DNA of 62,735 nucleotides from the IMG/VR virus record IMGVR_UViG_3300042448_001551, positions 1 through 62,735 of that record. One strand, 5' to 3'. The notes under the pieces were generated by a model that was not told the DNA's origin, searched no databases, and worked only from the letters and a program-made list of their open reading frames with translations. A program made the translations under genes and the position numbers. The number at the start of each line of letters is the position of its first letter. The stretch's first letter is position 1. Positions 1,678-51,312 of this stretch are shown here, one piece after another. The DNA is from a virus. Taxonomy: Duplodnaviria > Caudoviricetes.

Positions 1678-2286
1678 TTAGATGTTAAAATCATCATTAG
1701 CTTCAAATCCTTTTACACTAGTAGTAGGTAAAGCTTTATAATGATAAACATTATTTTTATCAAACTTATCTAATTTGTTTTCATCAGTAGAAGCAAATTT
1801 ATACTTTGGTAAAGATAATTTTACAATTGTTTTACCATTATACTCTTCTTCTGTTCCTTTTAAGAAGAAATACAAATCATGACCTTTTAAAACACTAGCT
1901 GCTTGTTTTACCCAATCTTCTATACTAGAAGCGGATATAGCATCTATTTCTTGTCTTAATCCTAGTTCAATAGCAATTTGAGCAAGCTTACTCATAATCT
2001 CATTTTTAGATGGATTGGGATCATTAAACTGATCTGTGTAAGAAGTTGCTGTAACTCTTGCTGATTGTCCTAAGAATTTAGGTCCATTAAGCTCATCTTT
2101 ATTAACAGCCCAACCTTCAAAGTCTGTAAGAGGTGTACCCTCTAACGTTAATTCTAAAACTTTTTTGTCTCCTTTACTAGAAGTTCTAACGTTTGCAGAG
2201 TAAATATGTGCTAATACTATTCCTGCCTGGAATGATTTTGAAACACCACTACTTGTTTTTACTTCTTGTCCTTTTGTACTAAACAT
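1678..2286 (-). CDS. Putative single-stranded DNA-binding protein
   Basis: Lies between the AAA ATPase and primase and ends in an acidic-aromatic tail (EANDDFNI). The call is inferred from context. Confidence 0.5.
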   Translation of the reverse strand: MFSTKGQEVKTSSGVSKSFQAGIVLAHIYSANVRTSSKGDKKVLELTLEGTPLTDFEGWAVNKDELNGPKFLGQSARVTATSYTDQFNDPNPSKNEIMSKLAQIAIELGLRQEIDAISASSIEDWVKQAASVLKGHDLYFFLKGTEEEYNGKTIVKLSLPKYKFASTDENKLDKFDKNNVYHYKALPTTSVKGFEANDDFNI

Positions 2287-2312
2287 ACTGTTGATTTTAA
2301 TTATTAAACATT

Positions 2313-2996
2313 TTAATTTTCATAGTCTATAATAGCTTGTCTAACTAAAGCCAGATTATTAGGAATCTCAAAAAACTCAAACATATCTTTAGGAGATTTA
2401 CAAGTGTTTTCTCCATTAGTTTGAGTCTCAAAAATATACCTTAAATTACCTTCTTTGTCTTTTTTAACCTTACCATATAAAACAATACTGAATAATCCTT
2501 CCAAAGTTAAAGAATTATCCACCATTTTACCAAGAGTTTTTGCTTTAACTCTACGTTTTCCTTCCATATCCAAAGATTCTTCTGCATGCATTAGGAAGTA
2601 AACCTGTAAATCTTGTCTTAAATCTTTAGGTAATCTAGCAATTTTAGCTAAATTAGCTGCAATTGAGACAAATTTATCATAGCCTTTTTCTGTGGCTCTT
2701 TCAAAATACTCAAAAGATGACATATACTGCATATCATCAACTACAATAGTTTTTATTTCTGGCCTTTTTTCACTAATATACCTTAAACAAGCTTCAATTT
2801 TAGCTGGTTCAGCACTATTGTAAAGATTTCCTGATGTATTTTCTTTACTCCAGGGAGTATACATTTTTTTCCAACCTTTAAATGGTAAAGGTTTATTAGC
2901 TACATTAATAATAAATGTTTCTTGTGGATTTAAAGACTCTATACTGGTTGATTTTCCTGAACCAGATTCAGCTACAACTAATACGCTGGTTGCCAT
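2313..2996 (-). CDS. AAA_24/Sak4-like ATPase (phage recombination or replication)
   Basis: Walker A AESGSGKST, Walker B IVVDD, and KAKTLGKMVD..TLEGLFSIVL typical of this phage family. Confidence 0.8.
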   Translation of the reverse strand: MATSVLVVAESGSGKSTSIESLNPQETFIINVANKPLPFKGWKKMYTPWSKENTSGNLYNSAEPAKIEACLRYISEKRPEIKTIVVDDMQYMSSFEYFERATEKGYDKFVSIAANLAKIARLPKDLRQDLQVYFLMHAEESLDMEGKRRVKAKTLGKMVDNSLTLEGLFSIVLYGKVKKDKEGNLRYIFETQTNGENTCKSPKDMFEFFEIPNNLALVRQAIIDYEN

Positions 2997-20317: not shown

Positions 20318-21673
20318 TTAATCTTGAAATTCTGTTTTTACAACTTTATTAATAATAGTGCTCACTTGCTCTACTAATTTATTATTGTCAGTCACTACAG
20401 TGTGGTAATTATAAATATTTTTTACATTATACTCTAAACCAACACCAATAGTTACAAAACCATCTCGTTTACATTTTTCTATAATTCTTTTCATATCATC
20501 AATAGCTGATTGACCCCCATAAGCTTTACCAGAAGGTTCACCATCACTAATAGATATAAAAATAATATTATCATCTGTAAAACTTCTTACTTTTTCATAC
20601 ACTAAATCAATTACAGGACCATCATAATTTTCACAATAATAATTGCCATCTGTTTGATTTTTAATTGTATATTCAAAATCTTGATTAAATGGATCATGAT
20701 AAACTCTTATTTCTGGATGATCTTCTCCACTATGACCATAAAAAAACATTTTTTCTTTAGGAAGAATTTCAGAAAAAGCTTTATAAAGCACTTTAAATAA
20801 ATGATGCTGATAATATTGATTAGATCCTTGCATAGAACCACTCTCATCTCCTAAAATACACACACTAAATGGTTTAGTAGATTGGTTTTCCTCTATTTTA
20901 TAATAAACATGTGTATTACCAGCAGGAATCTCTCCTATTTTGCTACTATTTAATTTACCTGTTTTTAGATTGGGAACTATATCTTTTTTAGGATCAAAAG
21001 AAATATCTAAAAGTCTTACTAAATGATTTGCTTGAGCTATACACTTTTGATCAAAATGAATAGGAATATCAAATTTATTCATTTTTTGGAAAACTCCATT
21101 CTCTTTTAGTTTACCAGCTCTATCATCATCATATTTAATACTACTTCCAAATGAAAAACTAGATTTTCTAATTTTAATTTCATTTAAAGCTGGTTTAACT
21201 TTAGATAGAGCATCTCTTAAAGGGTTATCAGATTCACCTTCTTTTTTATCTTTTTTAGGAATTTCTATAAAAAACTGCGTGTCTGCTAAAAAATCTTGAT
21301 AATTAATAAATAAAGATGAAAGATCTGGATCATGAGAAAGAATTTCTAAACATGCTTTAATATTGTTTTTTGGAATATATAAATATTCTTTTTCATATAA
21401 TCCAAAAAAGCTTTCTTTTTTAATCTCCATTCCTCTATAATAAAAGAAAGCTTCAGCTCCATTACCATACTCTGATTTTTGATTTAACTTTAATAAAAAT
21501 AATTTTATTAATTTAGTTTTTGTATAGTAAGAAAGTCCTTCAACAGGATCTTCTGGTTCTTTCCAATCTATCTCTAAAGGAACATAAACATCTGGATGAT
21601 CCCATAAAACTTTACTAAAACCACCAAAGTACGAGGTTTCCCACCCCGTACTTGATTTTGAATAATAAGCCAT
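20318..21673 (-). CDS. VWA-domain protein (CobT/NorD-like)
   Basis: MIDAS DESGSM, ENYDG and ISDGEP motifs; downstream of a MoxR ATPase. Confidence 0.85.
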   Translation of the reverse strand: MAYYSKSSTGWETSYFGGFSKVLWDHPDVYVPLEIDWKEPEDPVEGLSYYTKTKLIKLFLLKLNQKSEYGNGAEAFFYYRGMEIKKESFFGLYEKEYLYIPKNNIKACLEILSHDPDLSSLFINYQDFLADTQFFIEIPKKDKKEGESDNPLRDALSKVKPALNEIKIRKSSFSFGSSIKYDDDRAGKLKENGVFQKMNKFDIPIHFDQKCIAQANHLVRLLDISFDPKKDIVPNLKTGKLNSSKIGEIPAGNTHVYYKIEENQSTKPFSVCILGDESGSMQGSNQYYQHHLFKVLYKAFSEILPKEKMFFYGHSGEDHPEIRVYHDPFNQDFEYTIKNQTDGNYYCENYDGPVIDLVYEKVRSFTDDNIIFISISDGEPSGKAYGGQSAIDDMKRIIEKCKRDGFVTIGVGLEYNVKNIYNYHTVVTDNNKLVEQVSTIINKVVKTEFQD

Positions 21674-21679
21674 TTAATA

Positions 21680-22633
21680 CTATTTAGCTGTATTTAATAT
21701 TGTTTCTAACGCTTTTAAACCATCTGGTCCGCCAATACCTTTACAAATAATATAAAAACTATCATAAAGTGTGAAACCGTCTTCTACTAAAGCAGCAATA
21801 AGTTTTAAATGTCTAATAGATAGATTAAAACCAATAACAAACTCATCATGAGCATTATTAATTTTAGTATACACATCTACCATTTTAGCTATTACAAGAG
21901 GATCCATTTTTGGATTTTGAATAGTTATAGCTTTAGTGACATCTTCACTTGTTAATGGATCAATTTCTACTAACATAAATCTATCCATAAGAGCTCTATC
22001 TAACTTGTGAGTTCCTGTATACTGACCACCTAAGTTTGCTGTAGCAAAGAAAACACATTCTGGATGCACTTTGATTGGAGCAGCATCTTCAAAACAATAT
22101 TCCATAGGTAGTTCTCTACGAAAATCTAAACAAGGAAATAATAGATTATTTGCTGTAGCACTAGCTCTTGACAATTCATCCAATAGTATAATACCTGGTT
22201 TTTGGATCATTTCACTAAAACGTGATTTTACAAATGTACTTGTGGTTTTGCCGTCTTCCATTTTTATAATATGAGTTCCTACAAGACTCATAATTGGGTC
22301 ACTCATAGTACCCATGTCAAAAATTGTTAGAGGTAGATTTTTAATTTTAGCTAAATTAGAAACTAACTCTGTTTTACCTACACCAGTAGGTCCTAATAAT
22401 AATGTACTTACATTTTTATCTACATTTCTTTCTACAACTGCTAAAAGCCCTTTTGAAACTCTATAATAACCATTAATAGTTTTATAACTACCTCCAGTAA
22501 ACTCTGGTTTTTTTACTGTTTTTCTGTCTTCTTTAACAGATTTTTTACTACTTTCTTCGATTGACTTTTTTAACTCTTCTACAAGACTTTCTGTAGTTAA
22601 ACCTAGATTTTCCATTGTTGATTTTGTTGACAT
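21680..22633 (-). CDS. MoxR-family AAA+ ATPase (CobS/CbbQ/NorQ-like)
   Basis: GPTGVGKT, LLDELSR, ATAN.G..Y.GT..LD.AL.DRF and SIR motifs. The likely start is MSTKST at 22633. Confidence 0.9.
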   Translation of the reverse strand: MSTKSTMENLGLTTESLVEELKKSIEESSKKSVKEDRKTVKKPEFTGGSYKTINGYYRVSKGLLAVVERNVDKNVSTLLLGPTGVGKTELVSNLAKIKNLPLTIFDMGTMSDPIMSLVGTHIIKMEDGKTTSTFVKSRFSEMIQKPGIILLDELSRASATANNLLFPCLDFRRELPMEYCFEDAAPIKVHPECVFFATANLGGQYTGTHKLDRALMDRFMLVEIDPLTSEDVTKAITIQNPKMDPLVIAKMVDVYTKINNAHDEFVIGFNLSIRHLKLIAALVEDGFTLYDSFYIICKGIGGPDGLKALETILNTAK

Positions 22634-22735
22634 TTTTCTTTTTAGATTTTTATGATTAATAGAATAAAAACAAGTCCCAGTATAAAAATACCAGGACTTT
22701 ATCCGCACAAACAATTCCCATTTATTCCTGGGTCT

Positions 22736-22780
22736 TGGTGACTATAACAAGAATCGAACTTGTTTAAATACCTTTTAGTC
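22736..22780 (-). ncRNA. tRNA-like minihelix (acceptor stem + T-arm + ACCA; no D or anticodon arm)
   Basis: Minus strand reads GACTAAA-AGGTATTTAA-ACAAG TTCGATT CTTGT-TATAGTC-A-CCA. Confidence 0.6.
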
Positions 22781-22841
22781 AAAAAAAAAGGAAGAACTTT
22801 TACATTCTCCCTTTTGTAATCTATATTGTTTTTATTTTTTT

Positions 22842-23171
22842 TTAGAATCTTTCTAATAAGATTCTTTCAGCAAAATCTAATGCTTTTTCTAATCCTTCCA
22901 CTACTTGATAAGCATCAAACTCATTTTGCACACTGTACGGAACAGCTGATTGAGCAGCAATTAATTCACGTCTAGCTGCTGCTAAGTCTTTTTTGGTGGT
23001 AGCTACTGTTACTTCCAAATCTGACTTTGCAATCTGAACTTTTAAGTCCAGCTCCTCCGCTTCTAACTGTTGTTGGGATTTTGATATGAGGTCTTTGTAC
23101 TTTAATACCTCGTTCATTCTGTCTTTCAATATTACTGTTTCCTTCTGTGTTTTTGTTGTTGCTACTGCCAT
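22842..23171 (-). CDS. Coiled-coil hypothetical protein
   Basis: 109 aa, with an A-rich leader (aacacaaatcaaaATG); overlaps the upstream gene by 200 nt. Confidence 0.7.
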   Translation of the reverse strand: MAVATTKTQKETVILKDRMNEVLKYKDLISKSQQQLEAEELDLKVQIAKSDLEVTVATTKKDLAAARRELIAAQSAVPYSVQNEFDAYQVVEGLEKALDFAERILLERF

Positions 23172-24345
23172 TTTGATTTGTGTTTATTGGTTTATTAATA
23201 ATTGCTGTGTATTCTTTTGTATCAGAATTGTATAACCACCTTCTTAACTCAGGAGAACTAATATTACCATTATAATCTCCATTGTACTCTTTAATACCAT
23301 TATATACTTCGTCAGTTATCCTTTCTGTACGTTTTATTTCATTTATTTCGGTTTTTACATCTGTACCTACTGGAAACATTTGCTTACATACTTCTAATGG
23401 AGATAGTTCTTTTTTAGGTATATCATTTATATTTTTTCCACCATTATTGTAAAAAGTTATCTCTTCTGGTGTGGCTAGTCTCCATGATGATTTATCTGCT
23501 GATGATCTAGATTTTGTATAAAATAAGTCATCTTTTTCACTAGCTGGTAAAACTCTAAAAATATCTCCTATTTTTCTAGCACCACCAACATCTCTTAATG
23601 AAACCACTGTATCTCCTATATATATTCCTGGAAATACTACCATTCTTTCTATTTTCTTTTTTTCTTCTGTAATAAACTTAGGCATACCATATTCATAAAA
23701 AGTATCAAAAGATATTAGAGGACCAGAATTGTCCATACCTGTATGAAATTTTTTCTCACTACCATAAATAAATAAGTAATTATCATGATCTGAACAATCA
23801 TGATTAAGTTTCCATCCTTGGGAAATAAACCAGTTTACAGCATGTTCCATATGCTCTTTACTGGGAAGATTAAAAGATTTAGCAGTTGGAATAGGTTTGA
23901 ATTTATTACTAAGTTCAGCGCATACACCTTCTTTTACAGGAACATCAGTACATTCAGCCCATACACCATTATTATAAACAAGTCCTTCATCTTCTTTTAA
24001 AGCAATCATTTTTTTATCATACCAATATGGATAGTCATATTTAATATTTTTATGATGACTTCCTATTGTATCAATATAAGAACATCCACTTGGAAATCTT
24101 TCCATAGCGTCTTGAAGAAGCGCATCTTTATAATTCTCAAAATAAAGATCATACATCCCATGATCTCCTATACGATAACCATCTTTAGATCCATTTTCCC
24201 ATAATACTGTTACCCAACCATTTTTTAAGTTTTCTATTATAACACCTGTTTTTCCTCCTCCATCTTGATTTCCATAAACCCAATCTTTCCCTCTTATCAC
24301 TTTAGCCCCACTTATGGGGTATTTCACGGATATTATTGTGCTCAT
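22972..24345 (-). CDS. Multidomain protein with an N-terminal MIB/HERC2-like (SH3-fold) domain
   Basis: GAKVIRGKDWVYGNQDGGG..G......WVTVLWENG....YRIG..GMYDL. Confidence 0.75.
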   Translation of the reverse strand: MSTIISVKYPISGAKVIRGKDWVYGNQDGGGKTGVIIENLKNGWVTVLWENGSKDGYRIGDHGMYDLYFENYKDALLQDAMERFPSGCSYIDTIGSHHKNIKYDYPYWYDKKMIALKEDEGLVYNNGVWAECTDVPVKEGVCAELSNKFKPIPTAKSFNLPSKEHMEHAVNWFISQGWKLNHDCSDHDNYLFIYGSEKKFHTGMDNSGPLISFDTFYEYGMPKFITEEKKKIERMVVFPGIYIGDTVVSLRDVGGARKIGDIFRVLPASEKDDLFYTKSRSSADKSSWRLATPEEITFYNNGGKNINDIPKKELSPLEVCKQMFPVGTDVKTEINEIKRTERITDEVYNGIKEYNGDYNGNISSPELRRWLYNSDTKEYTAIINKPINTNQNGSSNNKNTEGNSNIERQNERGIKVQRPHIKIPTTVRSGGAGLKSSDCKVRFGSNSSYHQKRLSSS

Positions 24346-24677: not shown

Positions 24678-24707
24678 ATTATAAGATTTTAATGTTTAAA
24701 AAATAGC

Positions 24708-24779
24708 GGTGTATGTTGGGACTCGAACCCAAATTTCATCCTCCCGTAGATGCGTACTAGCCTTTATACTACAAACACC
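24708..24779 (-). tRNA. Degenerate tRNA (His-like G-1:C73 acceptor, 6-nt anticodon loop)
   Basis: G-GTGTTTG-TA-GTAT AAAGGCTA GTAC-G-CATCT ACGGGA GGATG-AAAT-TTGGG TTCGAGT CCCAA-CATACAC-C. The cloverleaf is intact, but the anticodon loop is 6 nt and no CCA is encoded. Confidence 0.7.
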
Positions 24780-32759: not shown

Positions 32760-33700
32760 TTTCTCAATCTTTGATTAATAGAATAAGTAATCAAGGATGA
32801 CCTTATTTCTAAAATGTCCCCTAAACAACAACATAGCTTGATTTAATGTTGTATAGGAAAATAATACAATATGTATTATTCCTTTATCAAAGATTGGGGT
32901 GTGTTCCTCATGCACTCAGTTGTAATATTACTACCGTGGAGATCAACCCACCCAACTCTATAGTTATATCATATTAATATAACTCCTATCCTCGTATTAT
33001 TACAAACTGTCTCATTCTTAGATTGATTAACTTTAATTACAGGCAATATTACCTTCCCCTACATAGCACCCACTCTATTGTGAGATTTATATGCAGATTC
33101 GTTTGTTAATCAGATCTTTTTACATCTTGGGAGCTGATTAAAACCTTACTACATCTAACTATATAGCAAGTTTATACATTCTTTACAGCTGGCATTTAAG
33201 GAGAATAGTTAGTTCTTAGCCAATACTGTGGTGTTGTATTATTAATCAGATGTCCCAAGAAAGAATGAATAGTGCATAAAGGAATAAGTTTTGTTTTAAG
33301 GACTCAAGGGTCGGTCAACCCTTGATTTATATTTTATAAAAATCTCATTGGAACTACACACGACCTGAATGTATAGCTAATGTCTCCACATCACCCCAAT
33401 AAGATCGACTCTATACTAACTTTTAGTATATCATCTGTTATCTGGTCCACCACAAACCAGGGAGAGAAATAGACGTGTGGTTTTTACGTCTACGAAACGG
33501 TTGTACCATTACTGGTCGTTTAACTGTTACCTCTAAGCTTAACCGTAAATTTAGAGATTCAGTGCTTGATTTTATAGTCTGCACTAACTTAGCATTACAT
33601 AGAAAGGAATGTTTATCTATGTTTAATACTCTCACCCTTATATGAGAGAACACTATAGTAGCCCCACAAGCTTGTCACAGTTTATTAATCCGTAAAGAAG
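32760..33700 (-). ncRNA. Candidate large structured non-coding RNA (about 950 nt)
   Basis: No credible ORF in an otherwise gene-dense genome, many local hairpins and several long-range helices (see findings). The strand is inferred from the flanking genes and the terminator. Confidence 0.55.
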
Positions 33701-38165: not shown

Positions 38166-38998
38166 GTATATTAAGATTCACTGCTCATGATCATAAATAC
38201 ACAAGTATTGATGAACATGAAAAAGAGTGGTTATCTGTAACATCTTTTATTGGACAGTTTAAACAACCGTTTGATGCTGATAAGATTGCAGAGAAATCTT
38301 CTAAAAAAAGAAACTCGAAATGGTATGGAATGACTCCAGAGGATATAAAAACTGCCTGGAAAAATGAAGCACTAAGAGCTACAACACTTGGAACATGGTA
38401 TCACAATTGTCGTGAAAAAGATATTTGTGATTTTCAAGATATGGAAAGACATGGAAAGACAGTACCCGTTTTTACACCAATAGAAGTGGAAGGAATCAAG
38501 TATTCTCCTAATCAAAAGCTTACGGACGGTGTCTACCCAGAACATATGGTTTATTTAAAATCAGCAGGACTTTGTGGGCAATCAGATCTTGTAGAAGTGA
38601 TAGATGGGTTTGTACATATAACAGATTATAAGACAAACAAAGAGATTAAGTTGGAAGGATTTACCAGCTGGGATGGAATAACACAAAAAATGTTACCACC
38701 AGTGTCTCATTTAGACGATTGTAATTTAAACCACTATGCATTACAGTTGAGTCTTTATATGTATATTATATTAAAGCACAATCCTAAATTAAAACCAGGA
38801 GTGCTAACTATTCATCATATAATGTTTGAGGAAGTGGGTAGGGATAAGTTTGACAACCCTATAACAGAGCTTGATAGTAATGGAGATCCTGTAGTTAAAG
38901 ATATTGTACAATATGATCTTCCATATTTAAAATCAGAGATTATTAATCTTTTACATTGGCTAGAGGATAATCGCCACAAAATAAAAGTAAAGCACTAA
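38162..38998 (+). CDS. PD-(D/E)XK nuclease (Cas4/RecB-like)
   Basis: SVTSFI, GT..H, E...., GQSDLV, ITDYKTNK and HYALQLSLY motifs. Confidence 0.85.
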   Translation: MSILRFTAHDHKYTSIDEHEKEWLSVTSFIGQFKQPFDADKIAEKSSKKRNSKWYGMTPEDIKTAWKNEALRATTLGTWYHNCREKDICDFQDMERHGKTVPVFTPIEVEGIKYSPNQKLTDGVYPEHMVYLKSAGLCGQSDLVEVIDGFVHITDYKTNKEIKLEGFTSWDGITQKMLPPVSHLDDCNLNHYALQLSLYMYIILKHNPKLKPGVLTIHHIMFEEVGRDKFDNPITELDSNGDPVVKDIVQYDLPYLKSEIINLLHWLEDNRHKIKVKH

Positions 38999-39672
38999 TG
39001 AAAGTAGTATTTGATCACATTAATGGTTTTGGTAAAGTGAGTGATCAAGATTTTATTTATTCACAACCTTATGGTATTCTTGAAAATGGAGAAAATCCTT
39101 CAGATGCTTTAGATAAAGGATGGATACCGTGGGAAGACTTATGGTATAATATTAGATCTGTAAGAATAAAGTTAAGTGATTATAAACCACATGAAACTAC
39201 AAGAAAAAAAGCTAGACTTATTAATTTTTTGTATAAAGAGTTTGATGATAAACTTATCTATCGTGAACTATATGAGAAGTATTTAAGTCACCGTGGGTTT
39301 TTAAGAACAATTACATGGGAACAACTCTTTACTGGTCATATTGTTGAGTATAGTTACATGGGGAATGTTATTGGGTTTTCATGTGTAGAAAAATATAATG
39401 ATGCTTTAGTAGCAACACAGTTTGTCTGGGATTATGAAGAACCTAGTCTTTCTTTAGGCAAGGTGGCTCAGATGTATGAGTGTGAAATAGCAAAGATTTT
39501 AGAATGTAAATATGTATATATTTTAGGAGGTTATGAACAATGTTGTTTGTATAAGTCAGACTTTTATGGTTTTGAATGGTGGACAGGTTCAGAATGGAGT
39601 AGAGATAAACAATTATATAAAACTCTTTGTGAAAGAGATGATAAAACTACTGTAACATATGATGATATATGA
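38998..39672 (+). CDS. ATE1/Bpt-like aminoacyl-tRNA-protein transferase
   Basis: LDKGW, RSVRI and WDYEEPSLSLGK...E..IAK..ECKYVYILG.Y..CCLYKSDF resemble the ATE C-terminal D....SLG...Y.YLGY..C..M.YK..F pattern. Confidence 0.7.
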   Translation: MKVVFDHINGFGKVSDQDFIYSQPYGILENGENPSDALDKGWIPWEDLWYNIRSVRIKLSDYKPHETTRKKARLINFLYKEFDDKLIYRELYEKYLSHRGFLRTITWEQLFTGHIVEYSYMGNVIGFSCVEKYNDALVATQFVWDYEEPSLSLGKVAQMYECEIAKILECKYVYILGGYEQCCLYKSDFYGFEWWTGSEWSRDKQLYKTLCERDDKTTVTYDDI

Positions 39673-50018: not shown

Positions 50019-50252
50019 ATGACAATATATACTAGATTAGGTAGATTATGCAAAGTGTTAAATCCAGGATATAAAAAGAGTGTAAATAAAGAACCCTTTT
50101 ATATGGCTGTGATGGTTAAATATAAAGTGGATGAAAAGAATAAAACACAGTTATTATTTTTTACAGAAGCTGAACTTGAATTAGCATCAGCTCGTGCTAA
50201 AAGACTTCCTTTTAATGTTGAGCAAAGTGTTATTTCTAAAATTATAGATTAG
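50019..50252 (+). CDS. Hypothetical protein
   Basis: Likely start MTIYTRLGRL; LLFFTEAELE.A..RA motif. Confidence 0.65.
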   Translation: MTIYTRLGRLCKVLNPGYKKSVNKEPFYMAVMVKYKVDEKNKTQLLFFTEAELELASARAKRLPFNVEQSVISKIID

Positions 50253-50295
50253 TCTCAGAATAAACTGAGTTTAATATAAAAACAAAAAACCAAAT

Positions 50296-51312
50296 ATGAG
50301 TAGTGTAACTATTGTGGAAAAGTATCCACAAAACAAAAAATCAAGTATTGCTATACGTCCTTTTTTTGATTCTAGCATGGATAACATGGGTTTACAAAAA
50401 TATGGATTAAGTCTTTTTGATGGTGCATTCCATGAAGAACCTATAGCTTGCTTAGATATTAATGGAATTAAAAGGTATGTTACAGGATTAAATGAATTTG
50501 CTCCAGATATTAAAGCTCTTTCTATGGATGAGCAAGAAGCTAAGGTTAAGCAAATTCGTCAAATAATTTCTCAGTTAGAGAAAGAGTTAGCTGCAAATGT
50601 AGTTGATCCTAATGATGATCAGTTTTGGAACAAAGTGAAATTACTTAAACCTGATAATGCAGATTTTTGGGATAAGATAAAAATAAGATGTGGTAATGAA
50701 CCAGTCTTTTTAGAACCTGATAAAGACCCTTATGATCTGATTAGACTTTTAGCAATAGAAGCAGGTGGTTTTTCAATAGTTGCTAAGTCTTTAGAAGACG
50801 CTCGTAGAATGCCAGTTCCTCCTAAGTTTTATTTAGATAGACTAGAAGAAACAGCATCATTAAATACGGAGGTTAAAAAGATGAGAAATAAAGCTCTTTC
50901 TGAACTTCAAAAGTTATTTGATAAAAATCAGAATAAACTACTTTATGTAGCAAAAGCTTTAGATCCAAATAGTGCTCAATATAAGAAGTCTACACCAAAT
51001 GACATTATTTATGACAACATGGATAAGTATATTAATGGTGATCTTGTAGAGAAGGATAAACGTAAAACGGCAGAAAAGTTTTTAGAGGCAGCCAGTTTAG
51101 ATATGGAAACTTTAAAAATCAAAGCCATTGTAAAAGATAGTTCTTATTATAAGTTTATTTCTACAAAAGCAGATGGGTTTATCTATCATATGCAAACAGT
51201 TACTCTTTTAGGAAGAACTCTAGTAGATGTGGTTGAGTATTTAAGAAATCCTTTAAATGAGGAAATTTTAATAGATCTTACTAAGAAAGTAGAAAAATAT
51301 TGGAATCAATAA
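50296..51312 (+). CDS. Conserved virion-module protein
   Basis: 338 aa in the capsid block (RYVTGLNE motif). Confidence 0.7.
   Translation: MSSVTIVEKYPQNKKSSIAIRPFFDSSMDNMGLQKYGLSLFDGAFHEEPIACLDINGIKRYVTGLNEFAPDIKALSMDEQEAKVKQIRQIISQLEKELAANVVDPNDDQFWNKVKLLKPDNADFWDKIKIRCGNEPVFLEPDKDPYDLIRLLAIEAGGFSIVAKSLEDARRMPVPPKFYLDRLEETASLNTEVKKMRNKALSELQKLFDKNQNKLLYVAKALDPNSAQYKKSTPNDIIYDNMDKYINGDLVEKDKRKTAEKFLEAASLDMETLKIKAIVKDSSYYKFISTKADGFIYHMQTVTLLGRTLVDVVEYLRNPLNEEILIDLTKKVEKYWNQ

Follow-up and report, generated by a model that had tools for sequence, protein, structure and literature searches.

Minihelices that consist of the acceptor stem and the T-arm of tRNA have a long tradition as laboratory constructs and are central to ideas on how tRNA arose, in which they are the proposed ancestral tRNA; the model substrates of McClain and Altman are said to be a related system. 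Among natural RNAs, mascRNA from MALAT1 is a tRNA-like by-product of a long RNA. The same is described for the tRNA-like RNA of GUT15 (PMC6152437), and in RNAs of this type tRNA-end enzymes excise a tRNA-like fold, leaving the end of the host RNA and a small CCA-tailed RNA. Synthetic acceptor-T-psi-C minihelices (pATSer-type, Schimmel) are established substrates of RNase P and are cut well, and RNase P, some synthetases and EF-Tu are named as their users (PMC11221534); RNase P is described as measuring the stack of T-arm and acceptor stem (PMC4919913). The t-elements used by plant mitochondria as processing signals (Forner et al. 2007) are non-canonical tRNA-like folds in transcribed spacers by mRNAs, found via a conserved T-arm motif; according to PMC1920247, they were proposed or shown to direct the cuts by RNase P and RNase Z that make mRNA ends, and the excised element can persist and gain a non-encoded C or CCA. 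Finally, integrating elements commonly generate fragments of the 3' part of tRNAs (PMC9897764). In full-text literature searches, no description of natural, genomically encoded minihelices in phages was found.

The element described here, 45 nt long and situated in a phage genome fragment of 62,735 nucleotides (the window), resembles each of these systems in part. Architecture and size are those of the synthetic minihelices, but the latter, as presented in PMC11221534, are designed and have continuous stems without a connector, whereas the phage element is genomically encoded and has a 5' connector of 10 nt with a GG. With the t-elements it shares a T-arm fold in an intergenic spacer, on the coding strand of both flanking genes, and the core of its T-loop fits the plant t-element motif GGTTCRANYCC, of which the flanking GG and CC do not fit; t-elements, as far as PMC1920247 describes them, are organellar, belong to a system with protein-only RNase P and keep partial cloverleaves, whereas the phage elements, as putative cleavage substrates, offer just about 12 stacked pairs and the GG connector. 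RNAs of the mascRNA/GUT15 type differ in being eukaryotic and cloverleaf-like, around 60 nt long, and are not minihelices. The tRNA-like domain of tmRNA combines an acceptor stem and a T-arm, as the element does, with a D-loop analogue without D-stem, but the G3-U70 pair, the tag reading frame and the pseudoknots between the halves of tmRNA have no counterpart in the window element. An origin as a tmRNA remnant was considered and rejected, as there is neither G3-U70 nor a tag, and ARAGORN and Rfam gave no tmRNA in the window. Like the element, tRNA 3' fragments of the att type have a T-arm and an acceptor 3' strand with CCA, lack a D-arm and precede a terminator (PMC9897764); their start, however, lies in a canonical anticodon loop and their sequence equals that of a host tRNA, neither of which holds for the window element with its own 5' strand.

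Taken from lake water, the IMG/VR virus record that forms the window is around 48% complete and has a G+C content of 31%. A crAss-type major capsid domain is encoded in it (Pfam), and as this domain was all that was seen in this respect, the Bacteroidota host assumed in the original prediction is not established. The minihelix extends over positions 22736..22780 on the minus strand (i.e., it reads from 22780 down to 22736) and was delimited by sequence, pattern scan, the Rfam tRNA model RF00005 and the minimum free energy (MFE) fold of its context. It begins with the 5' strand GACTAAA (22780-22774), followed by the connector of 10 nt (22773-22764), the GG of which is situated 6-7 nt ahead of the T-stem, by the T-arm with the stem strands ACAAG (22763-22759) and CTTGT (22751-22747) around the loop TTCGATT (22758-22752), by the 3' strand TATAGTC (22746-22740), the discriminator A (22739) and an encoded CCA (22738-22736). 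In the outer stem, six of seven pairs are Watson-Crick, with an A.A mismatch at pair 6; pair 3-70 is C-G. The acceptor stem, T-arm, discriminator and CCA that had been read from the letters alone were thus all found in place, on the minus strand, as were the 10 nt standing in for the D, anticodon and variable arms.

Concerning its tRNA character, the element possesses six of seven acceptor pairs, all five T-stem pairs, GTTCGATTC (G53-TTCRANY-C61) and ACCA; its stack comprises around 12 pairs, as 7+5 or 5+6 layers, including the one A.A mismatch. It does not qualify as a tRNA, since D-arm and anticodon arm are absent and just 10 nt lead from the 5' strand to the T-stem. ARAGORN makes no call on it. 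RF00005 aligns to 22739-22780 from end to end; its score of 16.9 bits (E 0.03) does not reach the cut-off of 29, and no other Rfam family gave a meaningful match. Folded in isolation, the 45-mer has z = -1.9, is equalled by 7 of 200 shuffles and adopts another fold as MFE, and the MFE of the 148-nt context (22634-22781) contains both the outer stem and the T-arm. Logan contigs from three of four lake-water runs (X5, X8, X10; three studies) span 22530-22931 and carry the element without any listed difference, such that its sequence is real and fixed rather than an assembly artefact; owing to this identity they offer no variation to compare at the element. The fourth run, X16, has no contig over 22663-23005, which is a gap in cover only.

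All genes adjoining the minihelix are coded on the minus strand, as is the minihelix itself. Upstream lies a gene of 109 aa without family assignment (22842..23171, from the ORF list), which is the final gene of a block shared with the phage record G001, with 82% DNA identity that ends at 22841. Its stop codon (22842) is followed by an intrinsic terminator, T1 (22781..22815, terminator scan), which is the terminator-like hairpin already seen beside the element and is now placed at 22815-22786, with a run of nine T that ends directly at G1 of the minihelix. On the other side of the CCA, a small hairpin (approximately 22712..22735; MFE and centroid of 22634-22781) precedes a second intrinsic terminator-like hairpin, T2 (22672..22699; terminator scan and MFE), in the interval between the minihelix and the next gene; the single long hairpin at 22671-22737 of the original prediction is better read as this small hairpin and then the intrinsic terminator at 22699-22672. 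The ATG at 22633 opens a cobS-like/MoxR-type AAA_5 ATPase gene of 317 aa (21680..22633; Pfam AAA_5, phrog_249; hereafter AAA gene), after which a cobT-like vWA gene (20318-21673; phrog_17276) continues the minus-strand order. A promoter scan of the region recognised none for the minihelix.

Some further features of the window may be recorded. A full-length Hatchet self-cleaving ribozyme is situated at 33564-33699 (minus strand; 74.1 bits, cut-off 51), intergenic and on the coding strand. Just beyond the block shared with G001, at 24706-24779 (minus strand), lies a tRNA (RF00005, 42 bits) that lacks one base of the anticodon loop, such that ARAGORN gives a 2-base 'anticodon' (gg), and that has no encoded CCA. 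Within a gene of 457 aa with a MIB_HERC2 domain at its start, around 710 nt (23216-23928, minus strand) have no counterpart in G001, where the flanking matches abut; a weak paralogous match to this part is found in the next gene of G001. An ORF of 224 aa (38998-39672, plus strand) contains the C-terminal domain of arginine-tRNA-protein transferases (ATE_C, E 8.9e-8), i.e., it encodes an aminoacyl-tRNA-dependent transferase-like protein in a phage. A link between this ORF and the minihelices was considered and rejected, as the ATE_C family is present in none of the five other minihelix-bearing records.

The motif GTTCRANTC occurs at two sites in the 62.7-kb window, namely in the minihelix and in the single tRNA called by ARAGORN, and the whole pattern including NCCA is matched by the minihelix only (custom pattern scan). 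Among 1000 dinucleotide shuffles this complete pattern appeared in 4, whereas it appeared in 367 when CCA was not required; the statistical weight therefore rests mostly on the CCA, and the stems alone prove little in an AT-rich window. A 5' strand with six of seven Watson-Crick pairs at the spacing typical of the class described below is expected in about 2-5% of random AT-rich flanks, by a calculation from base composition. At the level of the window, the tRNA features of the element exceed chance.

Homologues of the AAA protein are numerous (at least 1325 at E <= 1e-10 among the best 8000 candidates scored, with P0002 at 96%, P0003 at 81% and P0004 at 79% identity nearest), the cultured ones being distant (at most 40.5% identical). 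An alignment headed by the window AAA protein yielded 26 IMG/VR loci with AAA homologues (24 at 47-72% identity, two weaker or partial), none of which has a minihelix; a locus search with the window protein alone gave one weak locus. GenBank phages contain no DNA match to 21600-23900, and the 61-nt element region matched there only the T-arm and acceptor part of tRNA-Arg in four Acinetobacter phages (E 0.4). Five records (L032-L036) carry the 109-aa gene at 90% identity, with a homologue of T1 and then directly the next gene, without minihelix. The AAA gene has no match in G001 (112 kb, rated complete) or in G002-G004, and G001 likewise has no minihelix. Homology with G001 and L032 extends through T1 and ends at its T-run, i.e., at the 5' end of the element. 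It follows that a mosaic junction lies ahead of the entire minihelix, which together with its 5' strand goes with the AAA module, and that truncation at this junction did not produce the 5' strand. The retained 5' acceptor strand, to which the original prediction had pointed, therefore shares its mosaic module with the remainder of the element. Since no available relative of the window phage carries the minihelix, the signs of conservation described below come from other copies.

In two of the 26 loci, the position upstream of the AAA gene is occupied by a tRNA-type gene. L024 has a tmRNA gene (2152-2427, plus strand; tag AEENNFALAA) directly upstream of the AAA orthologue; in L009, a D-arm-less tRNA-Arg(UCU)-like gene (2160-2239, plus strand; 35.8 bits) with a variable region of around 20 nt precedes the AAA orthologue and is followed by a terminator. 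At a distance of 1-2 kb upstream, both L009 and L010 also possess clusters of tRNAs. Another non-coding block, which starts with GTGGGCTAAGG and contains GGGGGTTCCTCAG, is conserved after a terminator around 250-350 nt upstream of the AAA start in two large phage records (L012 and L026); read by eye, it may represent another structured RNA.

The same architecture was found in unrelated phages. A scan of IMG/VR with the exact 17-nt T-arm gave at least 120 loci, 106 of them ordinary tRNAs and 14 others among the matches listed, and a full scan for GG-N7-T-arm gave 58 loci (40 tRNAs and 18 others); pooled, these are at least 133 distinct contexts, divided among the matches listed into 114 ARAGORN tRNAs and 19 non-tRNA contexts. 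Under a pairing rule that asks for at least six contiguous pairs of the 7 nt behind the T-arm with a 7-mer located 8-16 nt upstream, 5 of the 19 non-tRNA contexts (from four lineages) passed, the other 14 having at most three pairs, as against 3 of the 114 tRNA contexts (both among the matches listed). This rule is not fully specific, as four of five att-type tRNA fragments from bacterial genomes also pass it, three of them belonging to a single tRNA-Arg(CCT) type and having two G-U pairs apiece, and a relaxed version (six of seven pairs anywhere) flags five true tRNAs in L009 and L010. In a strict scan of the window together with four phage records (439 kb), 10 of 29 T-arm motifs were minihelix-like; the window contributes two of these motifs, and its own copy fails the strict rule of six contiguous pairs because of the A.A mismatch, such that all 10 stand among the 27 motifs of the four other records, which had been selected for already having one copy and were read whole or nearly whole. 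One copy is found in G008, two in G006, three in G009 and four in G007, six of them with T-arms of other sequence. In 100 shuffles under the strict rule, the mean was 0.13 minihelix-like copies and the maximum 1.

The members of this class mostly combine an outer stem of 6 bp with a T-stem of 6 bp, i.e., 12 stacked pairs, equal to the total of tRNA (7+5). The 5' connector measures 10-15 nt and contains a GG in all 12 elements compared, mostly 5-7 nt ahead of the T-stem, and the 3' side has at most one unpaired base. Folded in isolation, 7 of the 12 adopt the minihelix as MFE, and their folding z-scores are ordinary. CCA is encoded in two of the 12, the window copy and L240:6061-6105 (both as ACCA), and several elements begin with C, A or U instead of G. 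Every copy is intergenic and on the same strand as its flanking genes, and around seven of the 12 are directly preceded by a hairpin (by eye). In G009, three copies occur within 6.5 kb, each situated 6-9 nt past a stop codon, with the next ATG of that strand following after 33-41 nt. The copies of the window and of L158 stand independently upstream of phrog_249 cobS-like genes (30% identical over the AAA domain), whereas the other ten members adjoin unrelated genes with no Pfam match or with DUF3846; a Pfam analysis of the genes flanking the new copies gave no common family.

In the records examined for the class, other RNAs of unusual organization were noted. A type II hammerhead (L161 3218-3279, minus strand; 37.3 bits, cut-off 37) lies between the G009 minihelix at 65.8 kb and the other two at 59.3-60.1 kb. 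G006, which holds two minihelices, also contains a permuted (two-piece) tmRNA gene called by ARAGORN (50138-50726, plus strand). L194, L198 and L201 (around 201-330) possess what by eye are circularly permuted lookalikes of tRNA(CAT), in the order T-arm, acceptor 3' strand, a linker of 6 nt, acceptor 5' strand, D-arm and anticodon arm, with complementary flanks. A permuted or split tRNA was considered for the window element too and rejected, as no 5' strand follows its CCA, unlike in these three records. Finally, tRNA-like genes of around 105 nt, with an acceptor stem, a T-arm and a long unusual interior, are conserved across five records (L167, L186, L187, L191, L197) without being called by ARAGORN.

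Paired sites have changed together in two cases. In L221, the AAA protein of which is 72% identical to that of L158, the element has kept its place and a canonical T-loop, the connector differs, and two T-stem pairs are changed on both sides. Likewise, three outer pairs differ on both sides between two paralogues in G007 that are 300 nt apart. These two-sided changes, in L221 versus L158 and within G007, are signs of selection for pairing. More distant relatives of L158 (L222-L224 and L226; AAA proteins 57-59% identical) retain the outer stem, both strands of which have gained one matching base, around a hairpin without T-loop, which suggests a structured leader for which tRNA likeness is not essential. 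A locus search with the DUF3846 gene beside the L161 copy returned only identical relatives and hence no added covariation. In L220-L226, a GC-rich hairpin with the loop motif GTCTGNTATCGG is conserved around 100-250 nt upstream of the AAA start, and the motif recurs further upstream in each of these relatives; the hairpin may serve as a promoter of the phage or bind a protein. The check suggested in the original prediction, a search for the pattern in other phages, is thus positive in unrelated phages, with co-changes at paired sites in one lineage and one paralogue pair, whereas every available relative of the window phage lacks the pattern and hence offers no pairing to compare.

On the evidence of sequence features, recurrence, enrichment over controls and compensatory changes, the element is derived from tRNA and very probably a member of a real, selected phage class. 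As the best explanation we tentatively propose, at somewhat less than even confidence, that it belongs to an apparently undescribed class of tRNA top-half elements in phages that would act in intergenic RNA as signals for RNase P and 3'-end processing, similar to t-elements. A minus-strand transcript of the element would be a substrate for the tRNA-end enzymes of the host: RNase P would cut directly ahead of G1, behind the final U of the T1 tail, a site that offers the favoured U-1/G+1, around 12 stacked pairs up to the T-loop and A73-CCA, and the 3' side would be trimmed by a nuclease at the CCA or beyond it. Cleavage would thereby detach the leader of the cobS-like gene from the upstream RNA, which stems from the 109-aa gene and would have the T1 hairpin at its end; neighbouring genes may be affected, and a minihelix of around 45 nt would be freed as a by-product. 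The placement of the class between a stop codon and the next ATG, and the hammerhead among the G009 copies, fit a processing signal. Against such a role stand the separation of the element from the AAA gene by T2, the A.A mismatch of the window copy, the ordinary folding z-scores, the scarcity of CCA in the class, the starts with bases other than G, the hairpins without T-loop in the more distant L158 relatives and the lack of minihelices in the available relatives of the window phage; moreover, little RNA may reach the element, since the strong T1 with its nine U ends at its first base and no promoter was recognised.

The window element might instead be an inert remnant of a tRNA gene that, together with its terminator T2, originally stood upstream of the AAA gene and lost positions ~8-37 by internal deletion or by recombination in the anticodon region, its ends still pairing only because the event is recent. 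Such an origin, which we regard as the main rival, possible although rather unlikely, would agree with the frequent occupation of this position by tRNA-type genes (the tmRNA of L024, the tRNA-Arg(UCU)-like gene and terminator of L009, the clusters of L009 and L010), with a layout in which CCA is followed by a terminator as at the end of a tRNA gene, and with a connector similar to positions ~38-48 in those phage tRNAs that have this T-arm, where GG-N7 is seen as well (the 40 tRNAs among 58 loci). It would also agree with a window copy that has no conserved homologue, a mismatch and no recognisable promoter. Random decay, however, accounts neither for the recurrence of this geometry and of the GG connector in several unrelated phages, and in multiple copies within a genome, nor for the two-sided changes at paired sites, and a paired 5' strand, which is not taken from the neighbouring module, would be expected in only the small share of random flanks given above. 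A remnant of another kind, an att-like site by which the 3' part of a host tRNA is carried for integration, is most improbable. Integrating elements do commonly make such fragments (PMC9897764), and five fragments in bacterial genomes share the T-arm, with a canonical anticodon loop at the start and CCA and a terminator at the end. Yet a search of 185,579 bacterial and archaeal species, each represented by one genome, gave no match to the 20-mer that covers the T-loop to the acceptor 3' strand, and it is this lack of the 3' 20-mer in any bacterial tRNA searched that makes an att-like origin unlikely; the two loci of this 20-mer in JGI metagenomes are both GC-rich chance matches outside tRNAs, and an exact 26-mer of the element has no match in IMG/VR, perhaps minus the window's own record. 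Ahead of the GG there is no canonical anticodon loop (Y-U-NNN-R-A), as ACTAAAA lacks U33, whereas CTCCTAA stands at this place in the bacterial fragments; the 84 ORFs of the window, which represents about half the genome, gave no integrase domain; and several phages have multiple copies, each with its own 5' strand. The original judgement in favour of a true tRNA-derived acceptor/T-arm minihelix over an att-like copy of a host tRNA is thus upheld.

More of the original prediction is retained in a free small RNA that acts in trans, i.e., a CCA-ended minihelix that is aminoacylated or serves as a decoy or sponge for proteins binding the acceptor end or the elbow. The encoded ACCA of the window copy and of L240:6061-6105, the position of the element between two terminators in the manner of a small gene, and the use of acceptor-T minihelices by synthetases, EF-Tu and RNase P in vitro (PMC11221534) all speak for it, and the GG of the connector could mimic the docking of G18-G19 of the D-loop on the T-loop. 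We nevertheless regard it as improbable: no promoter was found, most members have no CCA and sit tightly between cistrons, there is no known minihelix identity element (3-70 being C-G, not G-U), and the ATE_C-like ORF does not co-occur with the class. For the class at large, a phage family of true minihelix RNAs that are excised by RNase P, carry an encoded or added CCA and act in trans, being charged or titrating host factors for the tRNA acceptor end or elbow, tRNA-directed defence enzymes included, is an equally doubtful prospect. Should the tRNA likeness be incidental, the element could be a cis-acting leader of the cobS-like gene, as operator, 5' stabiliser or, together with T2, attenuator. 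The minihelices of the window and L158 are indeed situated directly upstream of phrog_249 AAA_5 genes, in the common order hairpin, minihelix, small hairpin, hairpin, start codon; the L158 lineage maintains its outer stem with the matched insertion even without T-loop; and, by eye, an alternative pairing of the 3' CCA region of the window copy with the 3' arm of T2 is possible, although the context MFE does not contain it. We give this little credence, as the other ten members precede unrelated genes and none of the 26 AAA-homologue loci has such a leader. Very improbable, finally, is a chance overlap with a sigma-70-type promoter from which an AAA leader would start just past the 'CCA'. The promoter scan lists a corresponding minus-strand site, composed of TTTAAA (from 22768), a 16-nt spacer and TG-n-TATAGT (to 22741), with 9 of 12 matches and an extended -10 TG, and the minihelix pattern without CCA is common in shuffles. 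Promoter-like sites are not enriched around the element, on the other hand (6 observed versus 3.8 expected), the full pattern with CCA is rare, and the other class members have no comparable promoter (by eye).

To judge from these comparisons, the window element is more likely a working RNA signal for tRNA-trimming enzymes than debris. If the class is real and processed, the punctuation of polycistronic RNA by tRNA-like folds known from organelles would also exist in bacterial viruses, beside intergenic self-cleaving ribozymes; the elements would constitute a compact and portable signal for RNase P and 3'-end processing, and would explain T-arm motifs that tRNA finders leave unannotated. If instead they act in trans, they would represent a new kind of phage tRNA mimic.
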